Translations under genes and position numbers: made by a program
Shown: positions 11,259 through 43,521 of the stretch, one piece after another
Numbering within the stretch: position 1 is the first letter of the stretch
How the letters are laid out: each line of letters starts with the position of its first letter
DNA from: Candidatus Nomurabacteria bacterium
Lineage (GTDB): Bacteria; Patescibacteriota; Minisyncoccia; Phycocordibacterales; UBA9973
Direction of reading: 5' to 3'
Assembly (NCBI GenBank): GCA_026396065.1
Contig: JAPLXO010000010.1
Span: forward strand, 1-57,057
Length of the DNA: 57,057 nucleotides
Notes under the pieces: generated by a model
The model's input: only the letters and a program-made list of their open reading frames with translations
Database searches by the model: none
Told to the model about the DNA's origin: nothing

Positions 11259-11280
11259 TTACAAATTAGGTTATTTTATA

Positions 11281-11346: not shown

Positions 11347-11404
11347 GTAGAGATATATAGATCTTAGTAATTTTTATAGTAATAACAATCTAAATTTCAG
11401 TACC

Positions 11405-11743
11405 ATGGCAAGTTTTTATAGATTAAAAAAGGAAAAAGGTGGACACATCTTGTTTACTTTATCTCCAAATGACATCCGACATGATCATATCGTAGCGCAC
11501 AATCTTGGCTCCCCAAGCTTAGAGATTAAACACTACCCAAAGGAACATCTCGATGAAGAGTGGAATAAAAAAGACATTGATGCTAAGCACGAAGACGCAC
11601 GGACAGCACTCGAAACAAATCATTATCATACTGACTTAGACACTAGTCTAAAACACAGCGTGATAATTAATGCCACAACTGTGAAGCCCGAAGGCTACAG
11701 TGAGTTTTATCCAAACAATATAACCAAAAAAAATAAAGGTTAA
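11405..11743 (+). CDS. orphan His-rich 112-aa protein
   Basis: ORF with its own promoter and terminator and many His residues. I recognise no family. Confidence 0.5.
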   Translation: MASFYRLKKEKGGHILFTLSPNDIRHDHIVAHNLGSPSLEIKHYPKEHLDEEWNKKDIDAKHEDARTALETNHYHTDLDTSLKHSVIINATTVKPEGYSEFYPNNITKKNKG

Positions 11744-11764
11744 ATTATTTGGAAACAACATCCA

Positions 11765-11803
11765 AAGCCATTTCTTACTTAACAATGTAGGGAATGGCTT
11801 TTG
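11765..11803 (+). terminator. rho-independent terminator
   Basis: AGCCATT pairs with AATGGCT, followed by TTTT. Confidence 0.65.
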
Positions 11804-11829
11804 ACTTTTTGGGTAGTTATTGTTACTCT
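11801..11829 (+). promoter_or_regulatory. sigma70-type promoter
   Basis: TTGACT (11801-11806), 17 nt spacer, TACTCT (11824-11829). An alternative TAGTAT lies at 11864-11869. Confidence 0.45.
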
Positions 11830-11892
11830 GAAAATATAAACGAAAGGCTCGTTGAAATAAAAATAGTATAAATCAAAAATAAAAAAAGAAGA

Positions 11893-16319: not shown

Positions 16320-17168
16320 ATGAAGACATACAAACCTACATCTAAATCAAGAAGACAAATGACGAACGTCACTTACCGTGGCGTATTGACTGAATCTTCA
16401 CCTCTAAAAGCTCTAACTCATGGTTTCAAGAGAAGCGTAGGTAGAAATAATCTAGGACGTATTACTACTCGTCACAAAGGTGCAGGGCACAAGAGACTTT
16501 ATCGTGAAGTTGATTTTGTTTATGATAAGAAAGATATTCCAGCAAAAATAACAAGTGTTGAATATGATCCAAACCGTTCAGCCTTTATCGGTATCGCAGT
16601 ATATAAAGATGGTGAAAAACGCTATGTAGTTTTACCTCAAACAGTAAAAGTAGGTGATACATTTATAGTTTCAGAAAATGCTGAGTTAAAAGTAGGTAAC
16701 CGTTTACAACTTAGAAATATTCCAGTTGGAACATTTGTTTACAATATAGAAATGAAAGCTGGTTCTGGTGCAAAGATAGGAAGAAGTGCAGGAATTTTTG
16801 CTCAAGTTGTAGCTAATGCTGATGGTTATACAAATATCAAAATGCCAAGTACAGAAGTTCGTAAAGTTTCTGAACTAGCATGGGCATCTGTAGGATCTGT
16901 ATCAAACGAAGAACATCATTTAGAAAATTACGGAAAAGCAGGACGTTCACGATGGAAAGGTATTCGCCCAACAGTTCGCGGAACAGCCATGAACCCTGTC
17001 GACCACCCATACGGAGGAGGAGAAGGACGCCAAGGACGCGGAACACGAAGACCAAAGACTCTATGGGGTAAGGTTACAGGAGGAAGAAAGTCTCGAACTC
17101 CAAAGAAATACTCAAATGTATTCATCGTTTCTCGACGAAAGACAGGAAAGAATAGAAAATCTTCTTAA
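16320..17168 (+). CDS. rplB: 50S ribosomal protein L2
   Basis: RGTAMNPVDHPYGGGEGR. Confidence 0.97.
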   Translation: MKTYKPTSKSRRQMTNVTYRGVLTESSPLKALTHGFKRSVGRNNLGRITTRHKGAGHKRLYREVDFVYDKKDIPAKITSVEYDPNRSAFIGIAVYKDGEKRYVVLPQTVKVGDTFIVSENAELKVGNRLQLRNIPVGTFVYNIEMKAGSGAKIGRSAGIFAQVVANADGYTNIKMPSTEVRKVSELAWASVGSVSNEEHHLENYGKAGRSRWKGIRPTVRGTAMNPVDHPYGGGEGRQGRGTRRPKTLWGKVTGGRKSRTPKKYSNVFIVSRRKTGKNRKSS

Positions 17169-17287: not shown

Positions 17288-17311
17288 TAGCCTTATAACA
17301 CAAGGCTTTTT
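17288..17311 (+). terminator. rho-independent terminator
   Basis: AGCCTT pairs with AAGGCT, followed by TTTTT. Confidence 0.6.
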
Positions 17312-17314
17312 AGC

Positions 17315-17343
17315 TTGACTTTTAGCTTATAATATGCTATACT
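17315..17343 (+). promoter_or_regulatory. sigma70-type promoter
   Basis: TTGACT (17315-17320), 17 nt spacer, TATACT (17338-17343). Confidence 0.6.
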
Positions 17344-17465: not shown

Positions 17466-17771
17466 ATGGCAAAAAAGCACAGTAGCGGAAACGCAATAGG
17501 AAATGCAATTACAATTGCACATAGAATAATAAGTTTTTTAATAATCTACACTGAAAGAAGTTTTAGGAACCTCTGGAACAATGGTAGATGGGTTATAAGG
17601 ACCGCACCTCTAGCACACACAAATCTGACTACCTTGTACACTAGTACAACCGGTGGAACGGTAAATGGCAGAGTAATAGCAATTAACTTGGTAGTAGTAA
17701 TAATACTGTATCTTGTTGTTTCTATAGCACTTATAATTTGGTCGTTCATCAGAGCGATTGCACCGCATTAA
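17466..17771 (+). CDS. orphan small membrane protein
   Basis: 101 aa with the C-terminal TM helix LVVVIILYLVVSIALIIWSF. It has its own promoter, leader and terminator. Confidence 0.5.
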   Translation: MAKKHSSGNAIGNAITIAHRIISFLIIYTERSFRNLWNNGRWVIRTAPLAHTNLTTLYTSTTGGTVNGRVIAINLVVVIILYLVVSIALIIWSFIRAIAPH

Positions 17772-17847
17772 TATCTATCTTCAATCCCCGCCTTCATTAA
17801 TTTGAAGCAGGGATTTGTTGTTTTTATTTGCTATAATGTCTGTCTAT

Positions 17848-18258
17848 ATGAGACAGGTAGTAAATTATATTCCAGTTCAAATTAATCCTGAAATAAAGGT
17901 ATTTATTCAAAGGCGTACTATTGAAGCACCGACACGACCGGGACTGTTTGGTCTTTTCGGTGGAGGGATTGAGGAGGGTGAAGACAAAATCACTGCGTTA
18001 CTTCGCGAGACGTATGAAGAACTTATTTATATTCCAAACCAAGAAAAATTGCAGTATCTTGGTAATTATTTTGATGAAGAAAATACACAGAAAGATATTT
18101 ATTATGAAATAGTGGATACATCTTTTGAAAGTAAGATAGAAGTTTTTGAAGGGGAATATGGTGCATTTTTAAATAAAGAAGAAGTCACAAATTCTCCAGA
18201 TATTTCACCTTCAGAAAAAAAAGCCCTTTTGGATCTATTTGATAAAGTAAAAGAATAA
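17848..18258 (+). CDS. NUDIX hydrolase
   Basis: NUDIX box GGGIEEGEDKITALLRETYEEL. TATAAT 17832-17837 favours the ATG at 17848 over 17836 or the TTG at 17815. Confidence 0.75.
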   Translation: MRQVVNYIPVQINPEIKVFIQRRTIEAPTRPGLFGLFGGGIEEGEDKITALLRETYEELIYIPNQEKLQYLGNYFDEENTQKDIYYEIVDTSFESKIEVFEGEYGAFLNKEEVTNSPDISPSEKKALLDLFDKVKE

Positions 18259-18319: not shown

Positions 18320-18625
18320 ATGCTTTTTGTTTACACAACGTGTTCAACTTCAGATGAAGCAGAATCATTAAGTAAACTTATTTTAGAAAATAAAATGGCT
18401 GCTTGCGTAGATTATTGGCCAATAAAGTCTATCTATCATTGGGAAGGAAAATTGAAAGAAGAAAGTGAAATTATGATGATAATTACCACTTTTGAATCAA
18501 AACTTGAAGCAATGAATGATTTGATTTCTAAAAACCACAGCTACTCTGTTCCACTTATTGCTGGTATAGACGTTAGAAGGATAAATCGTGCATATAGAGA
18601 GTGGATGATGCAGGAAGTTGCTTAG
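18320..18625 (+). CDS. cutA: CutA1 divalent-cation tolerance family protein
   Basis: AACVDYWPIKSIYHWEGK...ESEIMMIITT...HSYSVP pattern. 101 aa. Confidence 0.8.
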   Translation: MLFVYTTCSTSDEAESLSKLILENKMAACVDYWPIKSIYHWEGKLKEESEIMMIITTFESKLEAMNDLISKNHSYSVPLIAGIDVRRINRAYREWMMQEVA

Positions 18626-18692
18626 TAATTTTAATATAAAATATATCCCGCATTTATTACGGGAAGTGTTAATTTTTTTAAATATTCAACAA

Positions 18693-20393
18693 ATGGAAAC
18701 AAAAGCTTGCCAAAATTGTAAACGAGACTTCAATATAGAACAAGCAGATTTTAACTTTTATCAAATGATGAAAGTGCCGACGCCGACTTGGTGTCCTGAT
18801 TGCAGAATGGTCCGTCGGCTTTCTTTTAGAAATGAACGCAATTTATTTCGTAGAAAAGATGCGCTCACGAGTGATGATTTATTTTCTGGTTTTCCAGCTG
18901 AGGCTAATGTCAAAACTTATGAAAATAATTACTGGCATGGAGATAAATGGGATCCATTAGATTATGGAGTAGATTATGATTTTTCAAAACCATTTTTTCA
19001 GCAATTTTATGACTTATTGTCTGTTGTGCCTCTACCAGCAAAATCGTCTGCCGGTTTTATGATCAATTCAGACTATTGCAACGAAGCAGGAAGACTTCGC
19101 AATGCGTATTTGTGTTTCGATTCTGACTTTGTTGAAAATTCTGCTTATTTAGTTAAGGCGACAAATATAAAAGAATGTTTTGATTCTCACGAAATCTTAG
19201 AAGACGAATTGTGTTATGAGGATGTAATGGTATACAAATCTTATAAAACTTTCTACTCTTTAGATTGTGAAAGTTGCGTGGACGTTTGGTTTAGTAAAGG
19301 ACTTCGTGGATGCACGAATTGTTTTGGTTGTGTAAATTTGAGAGGGAAGTCTCATTATTTTTTCAACGAACCACTTTCCAAAGAAGAATATGAAAAAAGA
19401 ATTTCCGAATTAGATCTCAGTTCTTATGAATCAATTACAAAAATACGAAATGCAGTTTTAGAATTTTGGCAAAAATTTCCAGTAAAATATTATCACGGAA
19501 TACGAAATCACAATTGCACTGGTGAGAGAATAAGTGACTGTAAAAATGTCCTTGATTCTGTTTCAGTGCAAGATGCTGAAAATATGCGCTATATTCAGAT
19601 CAGTGTCCTAAAAGCAGCCAATTCATATGATTGCGTTCAGCTTTTTATGGGAGTTGAAAATGCTTATGAATGCGTTACTTGCGGAGAAGGCTCTTATAAT
19701 TTGAAATATTGTTTCAATTGTTGGGCAGAATCACGAGATTTAGAATATTGTGCCTACTGTATAGGCTCCTCCGATTGTTTTGGTTGTGTTGGTCTTTCAA
19801 AAAAACAATATTGTGTTTTAAATAAACAGTACACAAAAGAAGAATATTTTTCACTTGTAGAAAAAATAAAAAAACATATAGACGAAATGCTATACATTGA
19901 TTCATTGGGAAGGGAATATAAATATGGAGAATTTTTTCCATCTGAATTTTCTCCGCTTGCATACAATGAAAGTTTTGCTCAAGATTATATTCCTTTAAAT
20001 AAAGAACAGGCCAAAGAAAAAGGTTTTTTGTGGCGCGAACCAAATGCACGCGAATTTCAAACAACAATGCAACACACAGATTTACCAGATTCAATTCGTG
20101 ATGTTTCAGAAGATATTACAAAAGAAGTTATTGCTTGCGAGACATGCAAACGCGCATATAGAATAATATCTTCAGAATTACAATTTTATAAACGCATAGG
20201 TTTGCCGTTGCCACACAAATGTCATAACTGTAGATTTTTAGATCGTTTTAAATTTATAAATCCTCCAAAACTTTGGCACCGCAAGTGTATGAATACAAAA
20301 ATTTCTTGCCCAAACGAATTTGAAACATCATACGCGCCCGAAAGCACTGAGATTGTTTACTGTGAAAGTTGCTATCAAAAAGAAGTATATTAA
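18693..20393 (+). CDS. Cys-rich multi-zinc-ribbon protein, paralog 1 (566 aa)
   Basis: Starts METKACQNCKRDF..FY..KVPTPTWCPDCR. Contains CFGCVNL, CFGCVGL and YKYGEFFP, with a C-terminal CETCKRAYRI..ELQFYKRIGLPLPHKCHNCR and IVYCESCY. The ATG at 18693 lies inside track ORF 18618. Confidence 0.85.
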   Translation: METKACQNCKRDFNIEQADFNFYQMMKVPTPTWCPDCRMVRRLSFRNERNLFRRKDALTSDDLFSGFPAEANVKTYENNYWHGDKWDPLDYGVDYDFSKPFFQQFYDLLSVVPLPAKSSAGFMINSDYCNEAGRLRNAYLCFDSDFVENSAYLVKATNIKECFDSHEILEDELCYEDVMVYKSYKTFYSLDCESCVDVWFSKGLRGCTNCFGCVNLRGKSHYFFNEPLSKEEYEKRISELDLSSYESITKIRNAVLEFWQKFPVKYYHGIRNHNCTGERISDCKNVLDSVSVQDAENMRYIQISVLKAANSYDCVQLFMGVENAYECVTCGEGSYNLKYCFNCWAESRDLEYCAYCIGSSDCFGCVGLSKKQYCVLNKQYTKEEYFSLVEKIKKHIDEMLYIDSLGREYKYGEFFPSEFSPLAYNESFAQDYIPLNKEQAKEKGFLWREPNAREFQTTMQHTDLPDSIRDVSEDITKEVIACETCKRAYRIISSELQFYKRIGLPLPHKCHNCRFLDRFKFINPPKLWHRKCMNTKISCPNEFETSYAPESTEIVYCESCYQKEVY

Positions 20394-20397
20394 AATT

Positions 20398-20436
20398 ATG
20401 GAAACAAAAAACTGCCAAAATTGTCCCGATTTCTAA
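20398..20436 (+). pseudogene. decapitated 5' remnant of a further Cys-rich paralog
   Basis: ATGGAAACAAAAAACTGCCAAAATTGT CCC GAT TTC TAA encodes METKNCQNCPDF*. It has the same 4-nt spacing after the preceding stop as paralog 3. Confidence 0.7.
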
Positions 20437-20738
20437 AATTTAAAAATGTTTTATATTTACATATTAAACTCAATAAAAAATGGTAGATATTATGTAGGTA
20501 GTTGTGAAGATATTAATATTAGATTAACTAGACACAACAAAGGTTTAGTAAAATCTACTAAGTTTTATATACCATGGAAAATAGTATATACTGAAGAATA
20601 TAAAACATTATCAGAGGCACGTAAGAGAGAGTATCAAATCAAAAGTTGGAAGAAACGTTCAGAGATTGAAAAGTTAATAAAACATTTAAATTTTAAAGAA
20701 ATCGAGGATCCACGATTCTAATTTATTAGAATCGGGAC
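20423..20738 (+). mobile_element. putative GIY-YIG cassette with flanking repeats
   Basis: Inverted repeat GTCCCGATTTCTAA (20423-20436) and TTAGAATCGGGAC (20726-20738). Direct repeat TCCCGATTTCTAA (20424-20436) and CCACGATTCTAA (20710-20721). Confidence 0.5.
20446..20721 (+). CDS. stand-alone GIY-YIG nuclease domain protein (91 aa)
   Basis: FYIYIL...GRYYVGSCEDINIRLTRHN...EARKREYQIKSWKK matches GIY, YIG, Arg and Glu motif positions. Confidence 0.8.
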   Translation: MFYIYILNSIKNGRYYVGSCEDINIRLTRHNKGLVKSTKFYIPWKIVYTEEYKTLSEARKREYQIKSWKKRSEIEKLIKHLNFKEIEDPRF

Positions 20739-20747
20739 AAAAAAGAT

Positions 20748-22445
20748 ATGGAACATCAATCAGAAAGTAAAATATGTTTTAATTGTAAAGGTAGCTTTAC
20801 CATCGCACCAGAAGATTTTGGTTTTTATGAAAAGATTGGAGTGCCTACGCCGACTTTATGTTGGCAGTGTAGATATCAACGTAGAATTGCTGGAAGGAAT
20901 GAATGGGTTTTATATTTACGACATTGTTCAAAATGCGACAAAAAAGCAGTTTCAATTTATAATCCAGATTATTTAGGTAGTGTATTTTGCCTTGAATGTT
21001 TTTGGGGTGATGATTGGGATCGGACTGCTGCTGGTGTGGATTTTGATTTTTCTCGTCCATTTTTTGAGCAGTTTGCGGAATTACGAGAGCGGGCACCAAA
21101 ACCTGCAGTTGCGCAGTTTCGTTGCCTAAACAGTCCTTATACAAATCAATCTCAAGATCTAAAGAATTGCTATATGTGTTTTGCTTGCGATGCGAGCGAA
21201 GATTGTATGTATGGTAATTGGTATTTTAGCTGTAAGCAGTCTATTGATTGTAGTATTGTAAATAAGTCTGAATTGCTTTATGAATGCTTGGTCAGTTCTA
21301 CTTGTTTTAAATCTACATATTTAGTTGATTGCAAGAGTTGTATAGACAGTCATTTTTTAAAAAAGTGTCGTGATTGTCAAAATTGTTTTGGTTGTGTGAA
21401 TTTACGAAATAAAAGTTATTGTTGGGAAAATGTACAATTAACAAAAGAAGAATATTTTAAAAAGCTTAGTGAATTTGAGTGGTCAGTGGAAAATATTGAA
21501 AAGACAAGAAGACATCTTAATGAATTGTTTTTGAAATATCCAAACAAAAATTATGAAGGGCGAGACATTGTAAATGCGACAGGGGATTATATTTACCATT
21601 TAAAGAATTGCCAAGTTTGTTTTAGTACGCATAAATCCGAAGATGTCAGCTATTCTCAAGATGCATCTGATATGAAAGGTGGTCGTGACAATACCGAAGC
21701 TGCATACAATGAAATGGATTATGAATCAGAGGGTATAGGATATACCGCAAACAATATTTCAATTTCACGATGTTGGAATATGTATAATTCTATGTATTCT
21801 ATGAATTGTTTTAGTTGTGATAATTGCTTTGGTTGTGTAGGGCTTAATAAACAAAAATATTGCATTTTCAATAAACAATACACACCAGAAGAATATTTAG
21901 TTTTAAAAAATAAAATTATTGAGCATATGAAAAAGACTGGTGAATGGGGAAACTTTTTTCCTATTGAGATATCTTTATTTGCATACAATGAAACAGTTGC
22001 TCAAGAATATTTCCCAATGAATAAAGAAGAGATACTGGCGAAAAGGTGGAAATGGTATGACAGAGGTGACAGAGATTATAAGGTGACTGTGAAATCAAAT
22101 GAACTTCCTAAAACAATCATCGAAACACCAGATTCTATTTTGGAAGAAGTTATTAGCTGTAATTCCCATGAAACTGGAGCAGATAAAACTAGCTACTTTA
22201 ATTGCACTACTGCCTTTCGTGTATCTGCAGATGAATTGAGTTTTTATCGAAGAATGAATTTACCAATTCCACACAAGTGTTTCATGTGTCGTTTTCAAGA
22301 TAGATTACGTCTACGAAATCCTAGAAATCTCTGGCACAGAAAGTGTATGAAAGAGGGATGTGAGAACGAGTTCGAAACATCATATTCACCAGAGAATCCG
22401 GAAATTGTCTATTGTGAGAAATGTTATCAAAATGAGGTATACTAA
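20748..22445 (+). CDS. Cys-rich multi-zinc-ribbon protein, paralog 2 (565 aa)
   Basis: CFNCKGSFTI..EDFGFYEKIGVPTPTLCWQCR, HCSKCD..VFCLECFWGDDWD, CFGCVNL, CFGCVGL, and C-terminal ELSFYRRMNLPIPHKCFMCR with IVYCEKCY. Confidence 0.85.
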   Translation: MEHQSESKICFNCKGSFTIAPEDFGFYEKIGVPTPTLCWQCRYQRRIAGRNEWVLYLRHCSKCDKKAVSIYNPDYLGSVFCLECFWGDDWDRTAAGVDFDFSRPFFEQFAELRERAPKPAVAQFRCLNSPYTNQSQDLKNCYMCFACDASEDCMYGNWYFSCKQSIDCSIVNKSELLYECLVSSTCFKSTYLVDCKSCIDSHFLKKCRDCQNCFGCVNLRNKSYCWENVQLTKEEYFKKLSEFEWSVENIEKTRRHLNELFLKYPNKNYEGRDIVNATGDYIYHLKNCQVCFSTHKSEDVSYSQDASDMKGGRDNTEAAYNEMDYESEGIGYTANNISISRCWNMYNSMYSMNCFSCDNCFGCVGLNKQKYCIFNKQYTPEEYLVLKNKIIEHMKKTGEWGNFFPIEISLFAYNETVAQEYFPMNKEEILAKRWKWYDRGDRDYKVTVKSNELPKTIIETPDSILEEVISCNSHETGADKTSYFNCTTAFRVSADELSFYRRMNLPIPHKCFMCRFQDRLRLRNPRNLWHRKCMKEGCENEFETSYSPENPEIVYCEKCYQNEVY

Positions 22446-22449
22446 TAAT

Positions 22450-24228
22450 ATGGAAACAAAAACATGTCAAAATTGTAAAAGTGATTTCGTGATAGACCAA
22501 GAAGATTTTAATTTCTACGAAAAAATGCAGGTGCCAGCGCCGACTTTTTGTCCTATGTGTCGTGCACAAAGACGATTTGCTTTTAGAAATGAACGTGTTT
22601 TATTTAAAAGAAAATGCGATTTTTCCGGTAAAGAAATTTTTTCAATGTATGCTCCTGATGCGCCAGTAAAAGTATATGAAAAAAATATTTGGCTTTCAGA
22701 TGAATGGGACCCAATGACATATGGAGTCGATATTGATTTTTCAAAACCATTTCTTTCTCAAATTAAAGATTTGATGGGTGTAGTTCCTTTTAAAGATAGA
22801 AATGTCATAAACGGAGTGAATAGTGATTATTCTAATAATGCTACTGATCCAAAAAATTGTTATTTAGTTTTTAATGCTACAAATGCTGAAGATTGCATGT
22901 ATTCAAATGGAGTAAACCACTCTCGTGACTGTGTGGACGTTTCTCATGTTTCAAAAGTCGAATCTTGCTATGAAAGTTTTTGGTTGGCTGATTGCACTAA
23001 AACTTTTTTTTGTTCTCAATGTATTACTTCAAACGAATTGTGGTTTTCTAGAGATTGTCGCGGATGTCAAAATTGTTTCGGTTGTGTGAATTTGAGTAAT
23101 AAAAGTTATTATATTTTTAATCAGTCTTATACTCGTGAAGAATATTTTGCGAAATTAGCAGAGATGAAATTAGATACTCGAAGTGGAATTGAAGAAGCTA
23201 AAAAAGTAGCTTTTGATTTTTGGCAAAAATTTCCAAATAAAAATCACCAAGGAATAAAAAATTTAAATTGTACTGGGTCATATGTAGGGAATTGTAAAAA
23301 TGTAAAAGAATCATTCTTAATTCGCGAATCTGAAAATATAAAATATAGTCAATATTTACAGGAAATTCCAGGTTGCAAAGATTGCTATGATTTTACTGCT
23401 TGGGGCGATAACGCCCAAATGGTTTATGAATGTTCTTTGTGTGGTTCTGGTGTGGATAATCTTAAATTTGGCTTGTATTTACAGGAGCATACTAACGATG
23501 TCGAGTATTCTATTGCTTGCCAAGGGTCATCTAATCTTTTTGGTTGTGTCAGTCTTCGTAAAAAACAATATTGTATTTTAAATAAACAATATACAAAAGA
23601 GGAATACTTTGCTCTCGTCGAGAAAATAAAAAAACATATGATGGATATGCCTTTTATAGATTCAAAAGGTTTGGTTTATAAATATGGTGAATTTTTTCCA
23701 ATAGAATTTTCAAATTTTGCTTATAATGAAACAATTGCAAATGAGTATTTTCCTTTAACTAAAGAAGAAGCTGTTGCAAAGGGTTATACTTGGAGAGATC
23801 CAGAAGATAAAAATTATACTGTGACAATGCAACCAAACGATTTACCTGATTCGATTAATGATGCTACAGATGCTATTACAAAAGAAGTGATTGGTTGTAG
23901 TCACAATGGAGATTGTAATCATCGTTGCACCAAGGCATTTCGGATAACTCAGAATGAATTAAATTTTTATAAAAAAAATAAATTACCACTTCCACAGGTT
24001 TGTCCTTCCTGTAGAACTTTTGAAAGATTAAAATTCCGTCTTGGATTAAAACTTTACGAAAGAAAATGCCAATGCATAGGTACAGCCTTAGAAAATGGTG
24101 AATATATAAATGCAGTAAAACATTTCCATGGAGATGATCCTTGTATAAATGAATTTAAAACAGGTTTTGATCCTGTAAAGTCTGACATAATTTATTGCGA
24201 AAAATGCTACCAAGAAGAGGTTGATTAA
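22450..24228 (+). CDS. Cys-rich multi-zinc-ribbon protein, paralog 3 (592 aa)
   Basis: METKTCQNCKSDF..FYEKMQVPAPTFCPMCR with the same module order. It starts 4 nt after the paralog 2 stop. Confidence 0.85.
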   Translation: METKTCQNCKSDFVIDQEDFNFYEKMQVPAPTFCPMCRAQRRFAFRNERVLFKRKCDFSGKEIFSMYAPDAPVKVYEKNIWLSDEWDPMTYGVDIDFSKPFLSQIKDLMGVVPFKDRNVINGVNSDYSNNATDPKNCYLVFNATNAEDCMYSNGVNHSRDCVDVSHVSKVESCYESFWLADCTKTFFCSQCITSNELWFSRDCRGCQNCFGCVNLSNKSYYIFNQSYTREEYFAKLAEMKLDTRSGIEEAKKVAFDFWQKFPNKNHQGIKNLNCTGSYVGNCKNVKESFLIRESENIKYSQYLQEIPGCKDCYDFTAWGDNAQMVYECSLCGSGVDNLKFGLYLQEHTNDVEYSIACQGSSNLFGCVSLRKKQYCILNKQYTKEEYFALVEKIKKHMMDMPFIDSKGLVYKYGEFFPIEFSNFAYNETIANEYFPLTKEEAVAKGYTWRDPEDKNYTVTMQPNDLPDSINDATDAITKEVIGCSHNGDCNHRCTKAFRITQNELNFYKKNKLPLPQVCPSCRTFERLKFRLGLKLYERKCQCIGTALENGEYINAVKHFHGDDPCINEFKTGFDPVKSDIIYCEKCYQEEVD

Positions 24229-24245: not shown

Positions 24246-24273
24246 TTGACATTATTCTCCAATTTGCTAGTAT
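24246..24273 (+). promoter_or_regulatory. rpsS operon promoter
   Basis: TTGACA (24246-24251), 16 nt spacer, TAGTAT (24268-24273). It is followed by the hairpin AAGCTC/GAGCTT (24280-24296) plus TTT. Confidence 0.6.
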
Positions 24274-24311: not shown

Positions 24312-24656
24312 ATGACAAGATCACTCAAAAAACCAATAAATGTCGATGAAAGACTGCTAAAGAAAATAGCAGGCAAAAATCCTCTTCAAACACCAATGAT
24401 CAAGACTTGGAAACGAGCTTGTATGATCTCACCAGAAATGGTTGGTTTCACTTTTGGTGTATATAATGGCAAGGTTCATGTCGAAGTTTTGGTTTCTGAA
24501 GACATGGTTGGTCACAAATTAGGAGAATTCTCACCGACACGCAAATTCGTCAAACACGGAGGTAAGATGCAAAAAGAACTTGAACAAAAGAAAAAAGAAG
24601 CCGAAATAACACAAGCAAAATCCGCAACAGCAGCCGCTGACGCGAAGAAAAAATAA
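24312..24656 (+). CDS. rpsS: 30S ribosomal protein S19 with a Lys/Ala-rich tail
   Basis: [13 protein letters not shown]. Confidence 0.95.
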
Positions 24657-28256: not shown

Positions 28257-29918
28257 ATGACAAAAAAGACAGGCGCTGGCCTTACTACAGACAAAAAGTT
28301 TACTCTTGCTGATTTGCAAAAGCTTTCAGAAGAGACACAGATACCACTTACTGTTTTGCAAAAAGAATATGGAGTTTATGAATTTCATTTTTCTTCTTGC
28401 ACAGAAGCAGTAAAAGAGTATAAGTCAGGTTACAGAAGTTGCCCATTCCCCAGCATAGAGGATGGCATTTATGACAAACCTGAAGTAATAGCTTTTCACA
28501 AAGCGTGGAAAGAAATTTCACTTACAGAACAAACCAATGTAACTAAATTGAGTTTTGAAGAATCATTAATGTTTATTCAAGTATGTTATCCACACGGGGA
28601 ACAACTTGTTTCCTTGATAAAAAACTTGAGAAAACATATTGGTAAAGACATACCTAAAATTGTTCGATTTATTAAGGAAGGACAAACTTTTACTTTTTAC
28701 AAAAGTGATGAATGCCCTGTTAAAGCTCTTAAAGAGTACTTAATGAAAAAAGTTGAAGTTCACTACGACAAAAAGATTAGTAAAGCAAAAAGTTTAGAAC
28801 AACTGCTTTTCATTGAGCAGGAAATTTATGACTACAAGTTTACCGAGGTTAGACCATTTCCTATTTTTTTTGAGATTTTATGGCAAAGAAAAGCTAGAAC
28901 TGCAAAAAAGATAGATGACTTAAGCCTTGTTGGAAACTGTTGTGGGCACGAAGTGCTTAGATGGAGGGAACTTTATCCTAAAGCCACAATAGCCGAAGCC
29001 TTACCAACTTTGAGAGAATTTCTTTTGAAGATCTGGCAGGCACACAAACCCGATGATGTTTATTCAATAATCAGACACTTTTTTTCAAAGTGTGAAAACG
29101 ACCGTCAGGCGAGATCATTACTTGATATGGGAAGAGGTTTCTTTCCTCCACAAGAGAATTATGACCGCAGTTGTGAACTGTACGAAATGGCCAATGAAAG
29201 GATTTACCGGAAACAGTTTCCAAACCCAAGACTGAAAGATATGAGGATTATTTCCAATAGTATTTATTCTGACTCGTACAAAAAGGAAATTGAGAAGCTT
29301 TGGATTAAAAAAACAGAAAAAGCTTTAACACAGCCGATTCATAATTTCGGAGTGTTGTACGAGATGGCTCATAAATCTTTACAGGAGAAAGTATTACGTG
29401 TTTGGAATGAATGGGGATTGAAACAAATTGAAGGGATAGAAACTTGGGAAGAATTGTCACAATTCAACTATAGTCTACTTCCATCTCCACAAGTGAGACG
29501 TGGTAGAGGTTATTACATTTGGGCAGGGAATCGCGATTCATTTTCGGCCTTTATCGTATTTCTCAATAAGATTATACCCACAGTGGATATTCTTGGAAAT
29601 AAAACCAGGGTTTTAGATTCTATTCTTAAGTTCAATGATGTGCTCACCGAGTGCCATATGTGGGATTTGTTGCAAGATGAACTTCAACAGATTCTTTTGA
29701 GGATTTTTGAAGAAAATCAGTCAGTTGAAGAACTATGGGCTTTGCACGAGAAAGTTTCAATTAGTCCGGCATATTCGTGGAAAAAAAGTGATGAGATGAT
29801 TATAGATGAAATCCTTAAAAAAGACCCTTCAGCTATAAATAAAGTTTTCACTAAAGTAAAACAGGGTGACCCATTGTTTAGTAAGTATTTAAAAATTAAA
29901 GTTGCGCAGATTACTTAA
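28257..29918 (+). CDS. orphan 553-aa protein inserted between rplE and rpsN
   Basis: Long uninterrupted ORF with its own promoter, leader and terminator. No recognisable motif. Confidence 0.6.
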   Translation: MTKKTGAGLTTDKKFTLADLQKLSEETQIPLTVLQKEYGVYEFHFSSCTEAVKEYKSGYRSCPFPSIEDGIYDKPEVIAFHKAWKEISLTEQTNVTKLSFEESLMFIQVCYPHGEQLVSLIKNLRKHIGKDIPKIVRFIKEGQTFTFYKSDECPVKALKEYLMKKVEVHYDKKISKAKSLEQLLFIEQEIYDYKFTEVRPFPIFFEILWQRKARTAKKIDDLSLVGNCCGHEVLRWRELYPKATIAEALPTLREFLLKIWQAHKPDDVYSIIRHFFSKCENDRQARSLLDMGRGFFPPQENYDRSCELYEMANERIYRKQFPNPRLKDMRIISNSIYSDSYKKEIEKLWIKKTEKALTQPIHNFGVLYEMAHKSLQEKVLRVWNEWGLKQIEGIETWEELSQFNYSLLPSPQVRRGRGYYIWAGNRDSFSAFIVFLNKIIPTVDILGNKTRVLDSILKFNDVLTECHMWDLLQDELQQILLRIFEENQSVEELWALHEKVSISPAYSWKKSDEMIIDEILKKDPSAINKVFTKVKQGDPLFSKYLKIKVAQIT

Positions 29919-34769: not shown

Positions 34770-34775
34770 CATATT

Positions 34776-35710: not shown

Positions 35711-35711
35711 G

Positions 35712-37715: not shown

Positions 37716-39416
37716 ATGGAAACAAAAAGTTGTCAAAACTGTAAAAAAGATTTTGTTATCGAACAAGATGATTTTTTATTTTACGAAAAAATAAAAGTTC
37801 CACCACCGACATTTTGTCCTGAGTGTAGATTACAGAGACGTCTTGTATGGATGAAAGGACTTGATTTATTTAAAAGGAAATGTGATTTATGTGGAGAAGT
37901 GAAAATTTCTATGTATCATCCAGATGCTCCGTATGTGGTTTATTGCACTAAATGTTGGTGGGGTGATGGTTGGGACCCCGCAGACTATTCTATGGAATAT
38001 GATTCAAACAGAACGTTCTTTGAACAATGGAACGAGCTTTATCATAAAACTCCTGTATTTGGTCTTTCAACTGACAAAATTACCACCGAACTATCTCCGT
38101 ACACTAATCATGTAGGTAATTCAAAACATTCTTATTTAATTTTTTATTCGTATCTTGTTGAAGATTCAGCTTATGGTTTTGAAATTACCAATTCAAAAAA
38201 TATATATAATTGTGGAACAATTTTAAATTCAGAGAACTGTTTTGATTCTTCTAATGTTTATAAATCCTATAATATAGTTAGCTCTAGTGGAAATACTCGC
38301 TCATGTTATGATTGTTTTTTTATTCGAGATTGCGAGGGATGTCACCACTGTTTTGGTTTATCAAATGGCAAAAATCAATCTTACGTATTTCTAGGAGAAC
38401 AACTAACAAAAGAAAAATATGAGGAGAGTGTCAATAATATTGATATGGGTTCCTATTCTCAATACTTACAATGGAAAGAAAAAGTAATAAATTATTTTAA
38501 AACTATCTCACCAAAACCAGTATGGGAAACGCTTTCACAAAATATAAGTGGCAGCTATATTTTTAATTCGAAGAACTGTCATAACTGTTTTGATGTTACT
38601 GACTGCGAAGATTCAAAGTTTCTTATGTTGATAAAAATAGGTAAAGTGAAAGATTCTTATGATTATACTGATTGGGGAGAAAATGTAGAGTTATTATATG
38701 AATGTATGACTGTTGGAGATCAAGCACAAAATGTTAAGTTTAGTCATGATTGTGGACATGGTATTTCAAATATTGAGTACTCAAAACTTTCCACTGGTAG
38801 TTCTTACAATTTTGGATGTATTTCAATTAAAAAGTCAGATTATTGTATTTTAAATAAAAAATATTCGAAAGAAGAATATTTTGAGTTACGTAAAAAAATT
38901 ATTAAAGATATGGATATTAATCCATATCGTAGTATAGAAGGACATACTTATAAATATGGAGAATTTTTACCACCAGAATTTTCACCACATTCATATAATG
39001 ATTCTTTTGCCTCAAGAGTTTTTCCTTTGACTATAGATACAGTTATTTCAAAGGGATTGAAATGGTATGGTGGCGAAAAAAAAGAATATAGAGTAACTAT
39101 CCAAACTGTTGATATTCCAGACAATACAGCTGAAGTAGATGAGACTATTTTAAATGAGGTATTACAATGTGGTACCTGTGTACGGGGTTTTAAGATTATT
39201 TCACAAGAATTACAATTTCTACAACAACACCATTTACCATTGCCACGGCAATGTCCGTTTTGTCGTGTGTGGGAGAAGGTTGATAAATGTGTAGATAATA
39301 TGAAGCAAGTTGAAAGAAATTGTGATAAATGCGGAATTAATTTCATCACTCATTATTCTAAAGAAGAAGCACTAAAAATATTTTGCAAAGAATGTTATAA
39401 AAAAGAATTTTTATAA
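37716..39416 (+). CDS. Cys-rich multi-zinc-ribbon protein, paralog 4 (566 aa)
   Basis: METKSCQNCKKDF..FYEKIKVPPPTFCPECR, KCDLCGE..VVYCTKCWWGDGWD, YKYGEFLPPEFSP, and C-terminal ELQFLQQHHLPLPRQCPFCR with IFCKECY. Confidence 0.85.
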   Translation: METKSCQNCKKDFVIEQDDFLFYEKIKVPPPTFCPECRLQRRLVWMKGLDLFKRKCDLCGEVKISMYHPDAPYVVYCTKCWWGDGWDPADYSMEYDSNRTFFEQWNELYHKTPVFGLSTDKITTELSPYTNHVGNSKHSYLIFYSYLVEDSAYGFEITNSKNIYNCGTILNSENCFDSSNVYKSYNIVSSSGNTRSCYDCFFIRDCEGCHHCFGLSNGKNQSYVFLGEQLTKEKYEESVNNIDMGSYSQYLQWKEKVINYFKTISPKPVWETLSQNISGSYIFNSKNCHNCFDVTDCEDSKFLMLIKIGKVKDSYDYTDWGENVELLYECMTVGDQAQNVKFSHDCGHGISNIEYSKLSTGSSYNFGCISIKKSDYCILNKKYSKEEYFELRKKIIKDMDINPYRSIEGHTYKYGEFLPPEFSPHSYNDSFASRVFPLTIDTVISKGLKWYGGEKKEYRVTIQTVDIPDNTAEVDETILNEVLQCGTCVRGFKIISQELQFLQQHHLPLPRQCPFCRVWEKVDKCVDNMKQVERNCDKCGINFITHYSKEEALKIFCKECYKKEFL

Positions 39417-39453: not shown

Positions 39454-40227
39454 ATGGCAATTATAATAAAAACAGATAAAGAAGTAGATATAATTCGTGA
39501 GGGAGGTAAACACCTTGCCACTGTGCTTTACAAGGTCAAAGACATGGTAAAACCGGGGATTTCAACAAAAGATCTAGACATTTATGCTGAGAAGCTTATT
39601 CGTGAATATGGAGACGAACCAGCTTTCTTAAATTATCGACCAGCTGGAGTACGAACCCCATATCCATCCTCTCTTTGTACTTCAGTAAATAATGAAGTTG
39701 TTCATGGTATTCCAAAGAAAACTCAAATTTTAAAAGAAGGAGATATTATTTCTATTGATCTTGGCATAAAACACAAAGGACTTTTTACTGATATGGCTCT
39801 TACTGTGGCTGTAGGAGAAATAAGTTCGGCATCAAAAAAACTTTTGAAAGACACAGAAGATGCAATGCATGTAGGTATAAATGCTGCCATCTGTGGTGCA
39901 CATGTGGGGGATATTGGTAATGCAATAGAAACTTTTGCTAAAGCTAGAGGAAATTATGGAATTGTAGAAATTTTGGCTGGGCATGGAGTAGGAAAAGAAA
40001 TTCACGAAGATCCTTTTATTCCAAACTTTGGTAAGAAGGGAACAGGGGCAATTTTGAAAAAGGGAATGGTAATCGCCATAGAACCTATGCTAAATATGGG
40101 AACAAAGAATGTAGTTTTACACGATGACGATTATACATATTCGACTGCTGATGGAAAAAGAAGTGCACATTTTGAATGTACTGTAGCCATTACAGATGGA
40201 GAACCAGAAATTTTAACTAAAATATAA
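39454..40227 (+). CDS. map: type I methionine aminopeptidase
   Basis: VHGIP, DLG, HGVG and EPM metal-site motifs. 257 aa. Confidence 0.93.
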   Translation: MAIIIKTDKEVDIIREGGKHLATVLYKVKDMVKPGISTKDLDIYAEKLIREYGDEPAFLNYRPAGVRTPYPSSLCTSVNNEVVHGIPKKTQILKEGDIISIDLGIKHKGLFTDMALTVAVGEISSASKKLLKDTEDAMHVGINAAICGAHVGDIGNAIETFAKARGNYGIVEILAGHGVGKEIHEDPFIPNFGKKGTGAILKKGMVIAIEPMLNMGTKNVVLHDDDYTYSTADGKRSAHFECTVAITDGEPEILTKI

Positions 40228-40746: not shown

Positions 40747-43521
40747 ATGGTTGAAAATTTTTTCAAAGATATGCCAAAATTTAAATCTCCTACAGAGGAG
40801 CTTGATTTTTTGCGTGCCCATGTAGCAGAGCGTGAACAAGAGTTGATTAATAAGGGGCATTTTGAAAATGCTAGTGAAAATGCAAGTACGGAGGTAATTA
40901 CAGAATACATGAAAGTAGCTCCTGAAGAGGCTGTTCACAAAGATTTATTAATTCAAGAAAGAAAGTCTGATGAAATTATTTTAAAATTAAAACCAGAGAC
41001 ACACGACGTAGTGATGGAAGAAATTTTAGGAATTCTTCTTACTAAAGGAATTAAAAATGCAATGTCTGTAGTGGAAGGAATGAACAATCCACATATTGAT
41101 GATGATTTTCATCGTTTGCTAATTCAATATTTAAAAACAGGACAAATAATAGATGGCTTGAAAGATGGCACACCTTTATGGAAAGAATTGAATATGAGTT
41201 TGTTTGAAGTCACATTGCCACCTTCTCAAGCAGAGGATAAGGGTAAAGGAGATTTTAAGGCATTTATAAGTGCTATGGAGCAATTTTATGCTGGTATGCA
41301 TTCTATAGCTTCTTCACGTTCAAATGAAAGTGAAAATTATTTTGCTTTAGAAATAGCATTAGGAAACCAAAGCGATGAAGTAGTAATTTATTCTGCAGTA
41401 CCAAATACACACGTTTCTCTTTTTGAAAAACAAGTTTTAGCTTTTTATCACGATGCAAAAATCACAGAAGTAAGTGATGACTACAATATCTTTGCAGACA
41501 AAGGTGTATCTGTCGGTGCTTATGGATATTTTTCTGAACGTTCTGTTTTACCTATAAAGACTTATGACGAGATTGAGCATGATCCAATGAATACTATTTT
41601 GAATGTTTTTTCTAAATTAAAAAAACAAGGCGAAGGTGCAGCAATTCAAATATTGATCGCTCCTGCAGGAGAAAAATTTACAAAAGAATTTCAAATGATT
41701 TTGGATGATGTAAAAGATGGAAAATCTATAAAGCACGCATCAGACGATTTTTATAAATTTCATAAAGCTTTTTTGAGTGCAGGTAAAGAGCTTATTTTTG
41801 GAGTAAAGAAAAAAGAAGAGGGAAAAGAAAAATATATGGAAGGACGTCGTGCTGTGGATGAAGGTGCAGCTGAAAAAATAGGTAATAAATTGAAAAGCAC
41901 TATAATGAAGACAAATATTCGTGTTATTGCTTCTGCAGAAAATAAAGAACGTGCCGATGCTATTTTAAACGAAGTTGAATCTTCCTTTAATCAATTTACA
42001 GCTCCAGCTAGCAATTCTATTTATTTTGAAAAAGCATCTGGTTCTAGTTTGAAAGAACTTTTCCATGATTTTTCTTATCGAGCTTTTTCTCATGATAAAA
42101 TTCTGCCAATGAATTTAAAAGAGCTAGCTTCCGTATTTCATTATCCTATCGGTGTATCTTCAATGCCTCAACTTAAAGAAGCAAAATCAGGTATTGCTCC
42201 TGCTCCTGTGGAAATGGGAAATGAGGGTGTATTGCTTGGAATAAATAGTTATAGAGGACGCGATACAGAAATACGTATGTCTCGTGAAGATAGAATGCGC
42301 CACATGTATGTAATCGGACAGACAGGTACAGGTAAGACGACAATTTTGAAAAATATGATTGCGCAAGATATTAGAAATGGTGATGGTTGTTGTTTTATTG
42401 ATCCACACGGCACAGACATTCAAGAAATTCTTTCGTATGTTCCAAAGGAACGTATTGATGATGTTATTTACTTTGATCCTGCTTACACGGCACGCCCTAT
42501 GGGGCTAAATATGCTCGAATTTGATCCAAAATATCCAGAACAAAAGACTTTCGTTGTGAATGAATTGATGGGAATTTTCAATAAACTTTTTGACATGAAG
42601 AGTTCTGGGGGTCCGATGTTCGAACAGTATTTTAAAAATTCCGCTTTTCTAATAATGGAAGACCCAGAATCTGGATGTACACTTTTGGAAATTTCTCGCG
42701 TACTTTCTGATAAAGAATTTCGCGATATGAAATTGGCAAAATGTAAAAATCCAATTATTAAACAATTTTGGGTAAATGCTGAGCAGACGACAGGGGATCA
42801 AAGTCTTGCGAACTTCGTACCATACATCACTTCAAAATTCGATAACTTTATTTCAAACGACATTATGCGCCCAGTCGTCTTGCAAGAAAAATCTGTTTTC
42901 AATTTCCGTGAAATCATGGATAATAAAAAAATTCTTTTGGTAAATCTTTCTAAAGGACGCCTTGGCGATATCAATGCGAACTTAATTGGTCTTCTTCTTG
43001 TAGGTAAGATTCAGATGGCTGCTCTTTCTCGTGTAGATATGTTTGGCAAACAAATGAATGATTTTTATCTTTATATAGATGAGTTCCAAAATGTGACTAC
43101 AGATTCTATCGCTTCTATTCTTTCCGAAGCGCGTAAATATCGTCTATCACTCACCGTAGCACACCAATATATTTCTCAGCTTGAAGATAGCATTAAAAAT
43201 GCTGTTTTTGGAAACGTAGGTTCTATGGCTATTTACCGTATTTCTTCTGAAGATGCAAATTTTGTCGAACCAAAATTTAAACCCACATTTACTGCTACTG
43301 ATATTATGAAATTGGATAATTTTAATTCTTATGTAAACATGCTCGTGAAGGGTGTGCCGACAAAACCTTTTTCTATGACTTCTCATTGGAGCTTGTTGCC
43401 AGAGAAAGGTAATCCAGATATTGTGGAAGGATTGAAAGAACTTTCATATTTAAAATATGGTCGCGATAGAGAAGAAGTGGAAGCTGAGATTATGGCAAAA
43501 TACGAAAAGCAGAATGAATAA
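40747..43521 (+). CDS. 924-aa FtsK/HerA-superfamily P-loop ATPase of the VirD4/TraD coupling-protein type, with a roughly 500-aa unknown N-terminal region
   Basis: Walker A VIGQTGTGKTT, Walker B FYLYIDEFQN, and EARKYRLSLTVAHQYISQL. Confidence 0.7.
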   Translation: MVENFFKDMPKFKSPTEELDFLRAHVAEREQELINKGHFENASENASTEVITEYMKVAPEEAVHKDLLIQERKSDEIILKLKPETHDVVMEEILGILLTKGIKNAMSVVEGMNNPHIDDDFHRLLIQYLKTGQIIDGLKDGTPLWKELNMSLFEVTLPPSQAEDKGKGDFKAFISAMEQFYAGMHSIASSRSNESENYFALEIALGNQSDEVVIYSAVPNTHVSLFEKQVLAFYHDAKITEVSDDYNIFADKGVSVGAYGYFSERSVLPIKTYDEIEHDPMNTILNVFSKLKKQGEGAAIQILIAPAGEKFTKEFQMILDDVKDGKSIKHASDDFYKFHKAFLSAGKELIFGVKKKEEGKEKYMEGRRAVDEGAAEKIGNKLKSTIMKTNIRVIASAENKERADAILNEVESSFNQFTAPASNSIYFEKASGSSLKELFHDFSYRAFSHDKILPMNLKELASVFHYPIGVSSMPQLKEAKSGIAPAPVEMGNEGVLLGINSYRGRDTEIRMSREDRMRHMYVIGQTGTGKTTILKNMIAQDIRNGDGCCFIDPHGTDIQEILSYVPKERIDDVIYFDPAYTARPMGLNMLEFDPKYPEQKTFVVNELMGIFNKLFDMKSSGGPMFEQYFKNSAFLIMEDPESGCTLLEISRVLSDKEFRDMKLAKCKNPIIKQFWVNAEQTTGDQSLANFVPYITSKFDNFISNDIMRPVVLQEKSVFNFREIMDNKKILLVNLSKGRLGDINANLIGLLLVGKIQMAALSRVDMFGKQMNDFYLYIDEFQNVTTDSIASILSEARKYRLSLTVAHQYISQLEDSIKNAVFGNVGSMAIYRISSEDANFVEPKFKPTFTATDIMKLDNFNSYVNMLVKGVPTKPFSMTSHWSLLPEKGNPDIVEGLKELSYLKYGRDREEVEAEIMAKYEKQNE

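Follow-up and report, generated by a model that had tools for sequence, protein, structure and literature searches.

Tandemly arrayed cysteine-rich proteins of Patescibacteria with a predicted beta-solenoid core and terminal zinc-finger modules

Introduction

A large part of bacterial diversity belongs to the Patescibacteria (the candidate phyla radiation, CPR), whose genomes are tiny and which are known mostly from sequence. The present analysis concerns a family of cysteine-rich proteins encoded in 57,057 nucleotides (nt) of DNA from Candidatus Nomurabacteria bacterium (assembly GCA_026396065.1, contig JAPLXO010000010.1, positions 1 to 57,057 of the forward strand), a stretch referred to as the window. 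Three copies, c1, c2 and c3, lie head to tail between the ribosomal protein genes rplB and rpsS, and a fourth, c4, lies further downstream next to map. The initial annotation, made from the sequence alone, described the first three as multi-zinc-ribbon proteins that could be assigned to no named domain, and took their placement to hint at ribosome biology or metal handling.

The described domains that come closest are found at the ends of these proteins. One is zf_Tbcl (PF13451), catalogued as a probable treble clef domain and without known function; the end modules of the family (~45 amino acids (aa) each) share its CxxC...F.FY...P.P..CxxCR..RR pattern, with the two CxxC pairs ~25 residues apart, and it covers <10% of the family protein. 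The other is the CxxC-x17-CxxC domain (TIGR04272/PF23477), shown by inductively coupled plasma mass spectrometry (ICP-MS) to bind zinc in small proteins of Methanosarcina mazei (PMC12704099). The family keeps the x17 spacing before the last CxxC (C539-x17-C557xxC560 in c1; C60xxC63-x17-C81xxC84 in c2), and the full spacing is exact in the N-terminal ribbon of c2 and c4. It departs from the domain in two ways: the first pair of its C-terminal ribbon is Cx6C or longer, and the ligands of its N-terminal ribbon are gone in 58% of members, including c1 and c3.

For the centre of the protein, comparison is with solenoid folds. Hexapeptide-repeat proteins consist of many very short strands wound into a solenoid, as does the predicted model of c2; their repeat is 6/18, [LIV]-G-x2-[STAV]-x, whereas that of the family is 3/12. 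The antifreeze beta-helix of Tenebrio molitor is built of 12-residue TCTxSxxCxxAx rungs. It shares with the family both the length of the rung and a small inward residue (Cys, Ser or Ala) at every third position; unlike it, the family has no TxT face and no disulfide-like covariation of cysteines, is cytoplasmic and bacterial, and has no sequence match in the PDB.

Among the genes that accompany the family, the closest described are the orphan VirD4-type ATPases. A survey of 2,918 Patescibacteria genomes found 5,713 VirD4-type homologues, about two per genome, with 148 of them near virB4, and left their role open (PMC12102498). The ATPases beside the family likewise match TraD/VirD4/TrwB/HerA and lie away from virB4; they are neighbours of the family and not the family itself, and they differ from the orphan homologues in that no transmembrane (TM) segment is present, one type carries a zinc ribbon and another is linked to DUF8128.

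Domain architecture of the family

The architecture was read from an alignment of 224 full-length copies, from which sub-profiles were compared with hhalign. The layout is pseudo-symmetric, (finger + ribbon)-A-B-linker-(finger + ribbon), because the N- and C-terminal pairs are homologous to each other, as are the predicted solenoids A and B. Residues 1-81 match residues 477-562 at a probability of 99.7% (E 2e-25), and residues 129-240 match residues 278-392 at 99.9% (E 1.5e-36). The linker that follows solenoid B is acidic. Each finger has the pattern CxxC..F.I...D..FY....P.P..C..CR..RR, and AlphaFold2 (AF2) places a helix at residues 35-43 and 511-519, that is, at the second CxxC pair of each finger. 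The median net charge of the fingers is +2 and +5 while the rest of the protein is acidic, with an overall pI of 5.4-5.9. In c1 the C-terminal ribbon consists of C532 and C539, then x17, then C557-xx-C560.

The relationship of the fingers to PF13451 is remote and not one of curated membership. The domain is matched by 12/74 members at E <0.01 and some database members of the family carry a precomputed match, for which the NCBI name is 'zinc-ribbon domain containing protein'; the best window score is 16.2 bits (c3), which does not reach the 24-bit gathering cut-off. The AF2 finger superposes on phage 'zinc-ribbon domain' proteins in BFVD with a root-mean-square deviation (rmsd) of 0.8-0.9 Å. 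Similarly, PF23477 (zf_Tbcl_2) is matched by 17/74 members with E = 1e-7 for the best relative, and c2 remains below its threshold at 15.1 bits against a cut-off of 27. No match to TIGR04272 was found for the four window copies in the NCBIfam scan, and for one relative, L008:5985-7679, the score is 18.6 bits where the cut-off is 36. When the ribbon profiles of the family were compared with the bona fide CxxC-x17-CxxC domain of a neighbouring ATPase, hhalign returned probabilities of 92-97%. For the termini, then, the term 'multi-zinc-ribbon' holds, and it does not extend to the CFGC blocks of the centre, which are predicted to be rungs of beta-solenoids.

The cysteines themselves behave in two ways. 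Conservation is at least 0.89 at positions 6/9/34/37, 482/485/510/513 and 532/539/557/560, as well as at 207/210 and 365; Cys 213 and 374 are conserved at about 0.85, and positions 207/210/213 form a conserved CxxCxxC. The terminal sites display the pattern that would be expected of structural Zn(Cys)4 sites. The cysteines of the N-terminal ribbon (59/77/80) occur in 42% of members and co-vary with phi ~1.0, a pattern suggestive of a metal site that is gained or lost as a unit. Every other central cysteine column is 20-75% Cys, exchanging with Ser, Val, Ile, Leu, Thr and Ala, and no covariation of these columns with any other column was found in the 224-copy alignment. The cysteine richness of the centre probably reflects packing of the core and not zinc ribbons, because exchange with Ser, Val and Ile is free and covariation is absent; the same two observations rule out the central CFGC blocks as zinc ribbons or iron-sulfur (Fe-S) sites. 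In a metallothionein-like protein most cysteines would be conserved as ligands, which the 20-75% occupancy of the central columns does not show.

Predicted beta-solenoids

The two central domains are predicted to be beta-solenoids, with the CFGCV-x-L blocks as rungs. In solenoid A, the autocorrelation of core-like residues reaches 0.6-0.7 at each multiple of 3 over ~100 residues, the signal of polar and aromatic residues is highest at lags 12, 24 and 36, and every third residue, which faces inward, is Cys, Ser or small and hydrophobic. Insertions and deletions are nearly absent from the domain across the 224 sequences. The periodicity of solenoid B is weak.

Structure prediction improved with the depth of the alignment. 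A first AF2 model, made with 39 sequences, had an overall predicted local distance difference test score (pLDDT) of 77 and was vague in the central domains (55-70). A second, of c2 with 147 sequences, reached a pLDDT of 88 and a predicted template-modelling score (pTM) of 0.89, with a pLDDT of 93-96 in solenoid A, where the model consists of trains of strands of 1-4 residues, including a clear 12-residue 'EE--EEEE----' pattern. Foldseek searches with the first model found no PDB match, and a BFVD match limited to the 40-aa finger. With the c2 model there were 260 PDB matches at E <=10, none of them reaching E <=1e-3. Left-handed beta-helix proteins made up the entire top 50 (GlmU, LpxA/D, gamma-carbonic anhydrases and eIF2B), with a best E of 4.3e-3, TM-scores <=0.21 and an rmsd of 10-22 Å. 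The check by AlphaFold and Foldseek that had been proposed along with the initial annotation has in this way returned no significant structural match, only a weak resemblance to the left-handed beta-helix, and this resemblance is one of fold class only. Membership in that class was rejected, as the repeat is 3/12 and not 6/18, the scores are poor and there is no Hexapep match at E <=10. A likely new type of cytoplasmic beta-solenoid, with 12-residue rungs and a Cys/Ser ladder, becomes testable.

Size, spread and novelty of the family

A word-indexed search with c1 gave at least 7,981 significant matches, all named 'hypothetical protein' and none with a Pfam domain; their named sources are Nomurabacteria, Paceibacterota and further groups of the Parcubacteria type. 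When 1.84 billion representatives at 50% identity were searched exhaustively with a profile, 4,848 clusters matched at E <=1e-3, of which 2,137 reached E <=1e-30. The family is found mostly in Patescibacteria. A GC-rich, divergent subfamily is labelled Peregrinibacteria or Gracilibacteria, single copies are found in contigs with flagellar, sigma-54-activator or cytochrome bd genes, and one related protein is labelled by source as Bdellovibrionales. Fusion to an N-terminal GNAT acetyltransferase is seen in nine 90%-identity clusters of this branch (P0245 and P0396-P0403 among subfamily members), whose contigs have a gene content unlike that of CPR, and one member is fused to an inositol-monophosphatase-family domain.

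The four window copies share 32-46% identity in pairs, with BLAST E-values from 1e-95 down to 0, far beyond chance, so that the paralogous family proposed in the initial annotation is real. They are old paralogues and not recent duplicates, because identity is this low and nucleotide similarity among them is limited to short patches. Recent tandem duplication was further ruled out by orthologues of c1-c3 with 62-83% identity in other genomes (72-83% for c1, 69-79% for c2 and about 62-67% for c3). Because each of the three has its own orthologues elsewhere, the paralogues are stable, separately conserved lineages; the c1 orthogroup is often found 3' of cutA in other genomes.

Scans of c1-c4 with Pfam, NCBIfam, PADLOC and PHROGs left the core unmatched, yielding only sub-threshold zinc-finger matches at the termini and a weak match to phrog_15341, and the same scans with the central 285 aa alone found nothing for the core at E <=10. 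PDB sequences were queried with one protein, with a profile of 147 sequences and with a profile of solenoid A, and nothing rose above noise (LIM and MAT1 zinc fingers, E >=0.05). The statement that the core belongs to no named domain is borne out by these results. Among phages, tblastn against 50,697 records found no family member, and 0/200 pattern-matched stretches of IMG/VR viral contigs encode a relative. No paper on the family was found in the literature on cysteine-rich proteins of Patescibacteria or Parcubacteria, zinc-finger families and gene-family expansion. The ~400-aa core has no sequence model and no significant relative among solved structures or viral predicted structures, and the family appears to fall outside every described kind. 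What is new here is an uncharacterised family with a likely new type of solenoid, as distinct from a demonstrated new mechanism. Assuming a genome of ~1 Mb or less, the family can fill 2-3% of a Patescibacteria genome, and thousands of clusters with no domain model for the core, no structural relative and no paper constitute a sizeable blind spot.

The match to phrog_15341, a phage family to which no function has been assigned, covers the solenoid region (19038-19892, 21093-21947 and 22795-23649) with E-values of 4.4e-3 for c1, 6.4e-5 for c2 and 1.9e-6 for c3.

Tandem arrays and the neighbouring ATPases

Gene neighbourhoods were examined in 80 loci centred on the family and taken from GTDB contigs with one genome per species; judged by title, all belong to Patescibacteria. 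Together with the window these 81 sources hold 256 family open reading frames (ORFs). At least two copies are present in 59/80 loci, and same-strand tandem arrays are the rule: one 22-kb locus has up to 11 ORFs (10 merged copies by tblastn), all on one strand, and one Staskawiczbacteria contig, for which the overlapping loci L024 and L028 were reconciled, has 13 copies in ~25.6 kb.

Clustering of neighbouring ORFs revealed one dominant neighbour, a P-loop ATPase found in 30/80 loci (31 sources including the window) compared with 1/80 rpsS-centred control loci. In loci of at least 15 kb, it is found in 24/46 family loci compared with 0/20 rpsS-centred controls of the same clade. All 47 ATPase genes lie on the strand of the array and 29/47 directly adjoin a copy. 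The ATPase matches TrwB_AAD_bind, T4SS-DNA_transf, TraG-D_C, DUF87/HerA and the TraD/VirD4/CedD models of NCBIfam, well below equivalog cut-offs. It comes in three forms, none of which has a transmembrane segment. The long form (583-1,011 aa) has its Walker A motif at about residue 40 and, around residues 455-480, a CxxC-x17-CxxC ribbon, with a TIGR04272 score of 63.6 bits against the cut-off of 36; the short form (~490 aa) lacks the ribbon; and the third is fused to or preceded by DUF8128, as in the window gene two genes 3' of c4. In loci with annotated neighbours, no virB4 or channel gene was noted.

The window DUF8128-ATPase matches phrog_5156, also without an assigned function, over almost its full length (E 6e-80), and relatives with ~21% identity occur in Bacillus phage G (gp156), SPO1-like phages, CP-51 and Geobacillus phage TP-84. 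In nine Paceibacteria loci, DUF8128 occurs as a membrane protein of its own (28% identity over 257 aa), encoded 5' of the ATPases.

A canonical block is seen in locus L082, which carries a c1 orthologue with 82% identity. It runs through a short ATPase, CutA1, a cytidylyltransferase-like gene, two copies of the family, a 194-aa ORF, a long ATPase with the ribbon, an LTD/PKD surface protein and a methyltransferase. In 10-12/80 loci a copy has CutA1 no more than one or two genes away, and the other recurrent neighbours are housekeeping genes (dnaK, dnaJ, cysS, secDF and ABC transporters). In a close relative of the window genome, GCA_031413715.1, orthologues of c3 and c2 lie between adk/kinase and map-DUF8128-ATPase, which is the site of c4 in the window. 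The adk|map placement is thus conserved within the lineage, and the cutA-c1 pair in this genome resembles a piece of the canonical block that has been moved into the rplB|rpsS gap. A second semi-conserved home, in which scpA-scpB are followed by two copies, is seen in two lineages (L034, 6862-11707; L088, 6956-11719).

The GC-rich subfamily is arranged differently. On a 1.39-Mb contig with 56% GC (L169, with Peregrinibacteria/Gracilibacteria relatives), seven copies in 22 kb are interleaved with three divergently transcribed TrmB-type regulators. A second GC-rich locus is similar, and a TrmB gene also lies 5' of the copies in GCA_031413715.1 (L086).

Proposed function and alternatives

The explanation that we tentatively favour, at somewhat less than even chances, is a composite one in which the proteins serve as adaptors for the neighbouring ATPases, and most of its uncertainty lies in the docking partner and in the step that involves the ATPases. 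Each chain would carry three to four structural Zn(Cys)4 sites, as predicted from the conserved terminal cysteines. The two solenoids would be rigid rods with one conserved face, on which K/E at rung position 2, N/D at position 3 and Tyr at position 5 form a ladder, and the rest of their surface would be specific to each paralogue; the columns of residues 120-200 and 240-360 have an entropy of 2.1-2.8 bits, compared with 1.1-1.8 bits for the motif regions. At either end, the basic zinc fingers may dock to a shared partner, which could be a nucleic acid or an acidic protein. For the Paceibacteria, the partner system would most likely be the flanking soluble ATPases resembling type IV coupling proteins (T4CP), one of which shares the zinc-ribbon module, and an array would then be a repertoire of adaptors or clients for those ATPases.

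Several observations weigh against this explanation. Its binding partners are entirely inferred and no member of the family has a characterised homologue. Solenoid B is modelled with only moderate confidence by AF2 in both cases (pLDDT 61-70). In the GNAT-fused representative P0245, the treble-clef cysteine ligands of both modules are replaced (CxxS, CPEE), because of which zinc appears not to be essential in every member. There is no ATPase within 10 kb of the array in L169, many Paceibacteria copies stand apart from ATPases, for example after scpAB or by rplI/rpmA, and neither the short nor the long type of ATPase is found within the 57-kb window. Single-copy and GNAT-fused members lack the linkage and occur in unrelated contexts; one GNAT-fused copy comes after der, rnc, miaB and mnmA, and other members lie by a PMT glycosyltransferase, cytochrome bd or a transposase. 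The family is on these grounds a self-contained module, and partnership with ATPases, if real, is an elaboration of the Paceibacteria.

A more ambitious version of the adaptor explanation, which we consider doubtful, is that the arrays, the two soluble orphan VirD4/TraD-like ATPases, of which one has the zinc-ribbon module, and the DUF8128 membrane protein together form an unrecognised machine of the Paceibacteria, with the family supplying interchangeable cargo or specificity subunits and the solenoid being a new cytoplasmic fold family. Such a machine might, for example, transfer proteins or nucleic acids between the cell and its host, in either direction. If true, the ~two 'exapted' coupling proteins in each Patescibacteria genome would gain a function. 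The arrays are the most consistent Paceibacteria neighbours of the orphan VirD4-like ATPases, so the role of these ATPases becomes testable, as does the manner in which streamlined genomes keep arrays of ancient paralogues.

The alternative that survives best, though it is unlikely, is a conflict repertoire, in which the proteins are effectors passed to VirD4-like ATPases for delivery to the host, or else intracellular sensors in an anti-phage system that is built around HerA/VirD4-like ATPases. The arrays of divergent paralogues, with variable solenoid surfaces and constant termini, are consistent with this, as are the tight link to T4CP/HerA-like ATPases, for which the PADLOC models mad8 and HerA give scores too, and the toxin-antitoxin, GIY-YIG or restriction-modification genes near some loci. 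The proteins themselves, however, have no PADLOC match and, as mentioned, no relative in the IMG/VR stretches or the phage records. They stop right after the zinc ribbon with no C-terminal tail, and virB4 and channel genes are not noted among their annotated neighbours. The orthogroups are stable at 70-83% identity, unlike what is expected of an arms race, and the arrays lie amid housekeeping genes.

It is quite unlikely that the solenoids and fingers act independently of the ATPases, binding a macromolecule as a scaffold for modification of RNA or protein. The GNAT fusions and the one fusion to an inositol-monophosphatase-family domain point in this direction, the treble-clef modules are basic (+2 and +5), and the TrmB-type regulators by the arrays suggest conditional expression. 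These fusions nevertheless occur only rarely and within a single subfamily, no catalytic motif came to light, and the contexts of the fused genes are not conserved.

A role in metal handling, as had been suggested in the initial annotation, is improbable. The protein would then be a store, buffer or chaperone of zinc or Fe-S that uses its 33-40 cysteines and may act with CutA1. The 10-12/80 loci noted above have CutA1 one or two genes away, and to our knowledge its biochemical role is itself unclear. In L082 the canonical block has an Nramp transporter close by, the CxxCxxC at 207/210/213 and further cysteines at 365 and 374 are conserved, and the ribbon type does bind zinc (PMC12704099). Only 12-16 cysteines are conserved as ligand-like sets, however; the central ones swap with Ser, Val, Ile and Leu, show no covariation and follow the strict x-x-core periodicity of a solenoid interior, and the many conserved aromatic and polar residues and the rigid two-domain fold are unlike metallothioneins. 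What remains of the suggestion is the predicted structural zinc sites and the recurrent CutA1, a weak case overall given that the central cysteines do not resemble ligands.

The remaining alternative, a factor that is co-expressed with ribosomal proteins and acts in ribosome assembly or translation, is highly improbable: it has in its favour the location of all four window copies inside the S10 and spc clusters, the c3 and c2 orthologues at adk|map in GCA_031413715.1, a c1 orthologue between rplI and rpmA in L084, an array 3 kb from rplI/rpmA in L033 and the GNAT-fused copy directly after der, rnc, miaB and mnmA, and has against it the wider distribution of the family and the makeup of the ribosomal operons described in the following section, along with the other GNAT-fused copies, which lie elsewhere.

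Placement within ribosomal operons

Of 34 translation probes (27 ribosomal proteins together with EF-G, EF-Tu, IF3, SecY, Adk and Map), any is found in 3/80 family loci, and in these one is a GTPase of 26% identity and another an M24 peptidase. In the converse set of 80 metagenomic loci (L089-L168), centred on rpsS genes 65-90% identical to that of the window, 0/80 contain a copy of the family. Because of these two counts, placement is uninformative on function; location within the S10 and spc operons is a peculiarity of this genome, or of its close lineage, and incidental to what the proteins do. The link to ribosome biology that had been read from the position of the genes does not survive, since its proponent had named a lack of association with translation loci in other genomes as the finding that would overturn it, and the synteny search gave just that.

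The rplB-rpsS gap was measured in the 40 relatives that show both genes. It ranges from 31 to 4,615 nt and exceeds 500 nt in 25/40, with cargo that in several lineages comprises rplJ-rplL, a helix-turn-helix (HTH) protein and a 231-aa membrane protein and in others toxin-antitoxin-like pairs or unknowns. Because so many gaps are this long and their cargo is varied and unrelated, the rplB|rpsS junction is a general insertion site in this clade. The str-S10-spc cluster of the window is itself broken at five more places (rpsG|fusA, fusA|tuf, rplE|rpsN, secY|adk and kinase|map). The terminator-like and promoter-like sites around the rplB|rpsS insert (Table 1) suggest separate transcription, as judged by matches to consensus only; the promoter-like match after rplB is a strong one. 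Ribosomal superoperons in this clade are riddled with unrelated inserts, and the position of a gene in such an operon is weak evidence of its function.

Organization of the window

The coordinates of the genes and elements are collected in Table 1. The initial annotation had the three ORFs between rplB and rpsS right in position, strand, the 4-nt spacing between c2 and c3, and the count of 33 cysteines in the 566 aa of c1, and it was also right that the copies have no TM helix (maximum KD19 <1.0 in c1-c4). It overlooked the fourth copy. The flanks of the insert were likewise correctly named, though seven genes and not three lie between them (the 101-aa protein, Nudix, CutA1, c1, GIY-YIG, c2 and c3). 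The motifs that were said to be common to all three copies are not: c2 begins MEHQSESKICFNCKG and has EWGNFFP in place of YKYGEFFP, and the second block of c3 is LFGCVSL.

Table 1. Positions of family copies, their domains, and associated genes and elements in the window
Feature	Position	Strand	Basis or remarks
rplB	16320..17168	+	left flank of the insert
Terminator-like hairpin (17289-17307), then promoter-like site (17315-17343)	17289..17343	+	after rplB; consensus matches only
101-aa membrane protein	17466..17771	+	first gene of the insert; no family match
Nudix hydrolase gene	17815..18258	+	co-inserted cargo
CutA1 gene	18320..18625	+	directly 5' of c1
c1 (566 aa, 33 Cys)	18693..20393	+	ORF and translation
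c1 aa 1-81, predicted basic treble clef (C6, C9, C34, C37) and degenerate CxxC-x17-CxxC ribbon	18693..18935	+	
c1 aa 123-230, predicted solenoid A	19059..19382	+	nine 12-residue rungs, s-[KE]-[ND]-C-[YF]-x7, ending CxNCFGCvNLRN
c1 aa 278-392, predicted solenoid B	19524..19868	+	homologous to A; followed by KEEY helix
c1 aa 477-566, predicted second treble clef (C482, C485, C510, C513) and C-terminal ribbon	20121..20390	+	
Relic of the 5' end of a family gene (METKNCQNCPDF, then stop)	20398..20436	+	between the c1 stop and the GIY-YIG gene
Small GIY-YIG nuclease gene (91 aa)	20446..20721	+	between c1 and c2
c2 (565 aa, 40 Cys)	20748..22445	+	ORF; N-terminal CxxC-x17-CxxC ribbon kept (C60, C63, C81, C84)
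c3 (592 aa, 35 Cys)	22450..24228	+	ORF; start 4 nt past c2
Promoter-like site between c3 and rpsS	24246..24273	+	consensus match only
rpsS	24312..24656	+	right flank of the insert
c4 (566 aa)	37716..39416	+	tblastn of c1-c3 against the window; between adk/amino-acid-kinase genes and map
map (M24 methionine aminopeptidase)	39454..40227	+	3' of c4
DUF8128 domain fused to TraD/VirD4/HerA-like P-loop ATPase (924 aa)	40747..43521	+	two genes 3' of c4

Four of the other breaks in the ribosomal cluster hold genes of varied kinds. The rpsG|fusA insert (6321-8343) has three ORFs, one with a domain like the C-terminal domain of the RNA polymerase alpha subunit, and the fusA|tuf insert (10926-12822) has three as well, one of the amino-acid-kinase family. 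The rplE|rpsN insert (28257-29918) consists of a 553-aa ORF with no Pfam or PHROG match. The secY|adk insert (33959-36372) contains a bestrophin-like gene, an ORF without assignment and, on the minus strand, another adenylate-kinase-like gene that stands back to back with adk. Scans of the window for tRNA genes and Rfam families found none.

Right after the stop of c1 is a 12-codon relic, ATGGAAACAAAAAACTGCCAAAATTGT..., which encodes METKNCQNCPDF and a stop, a typical 5' end of a family gene. The GIY-YIG gene that follows is bracketed by an imperfect inverted repeat of 25 nt (20421-20445 and 20716-20740, 76% complementary). The relic and the repeats suggest a copy that has been lost or disrupted and a GIY-YIG cassette that is possibly mobile. 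In-frame insertion of the GIY-YIG gene into c2 was considered and rejected, as its removal leaves the reading frame unrestored. Further upstream, the 67-nt gap between cutA and c1 contains a stem-loop (TCCCGCATTTATTACGGGA) and then a T-rich run at 18646-18664, which may be an attenuator or terminator between the two genes.

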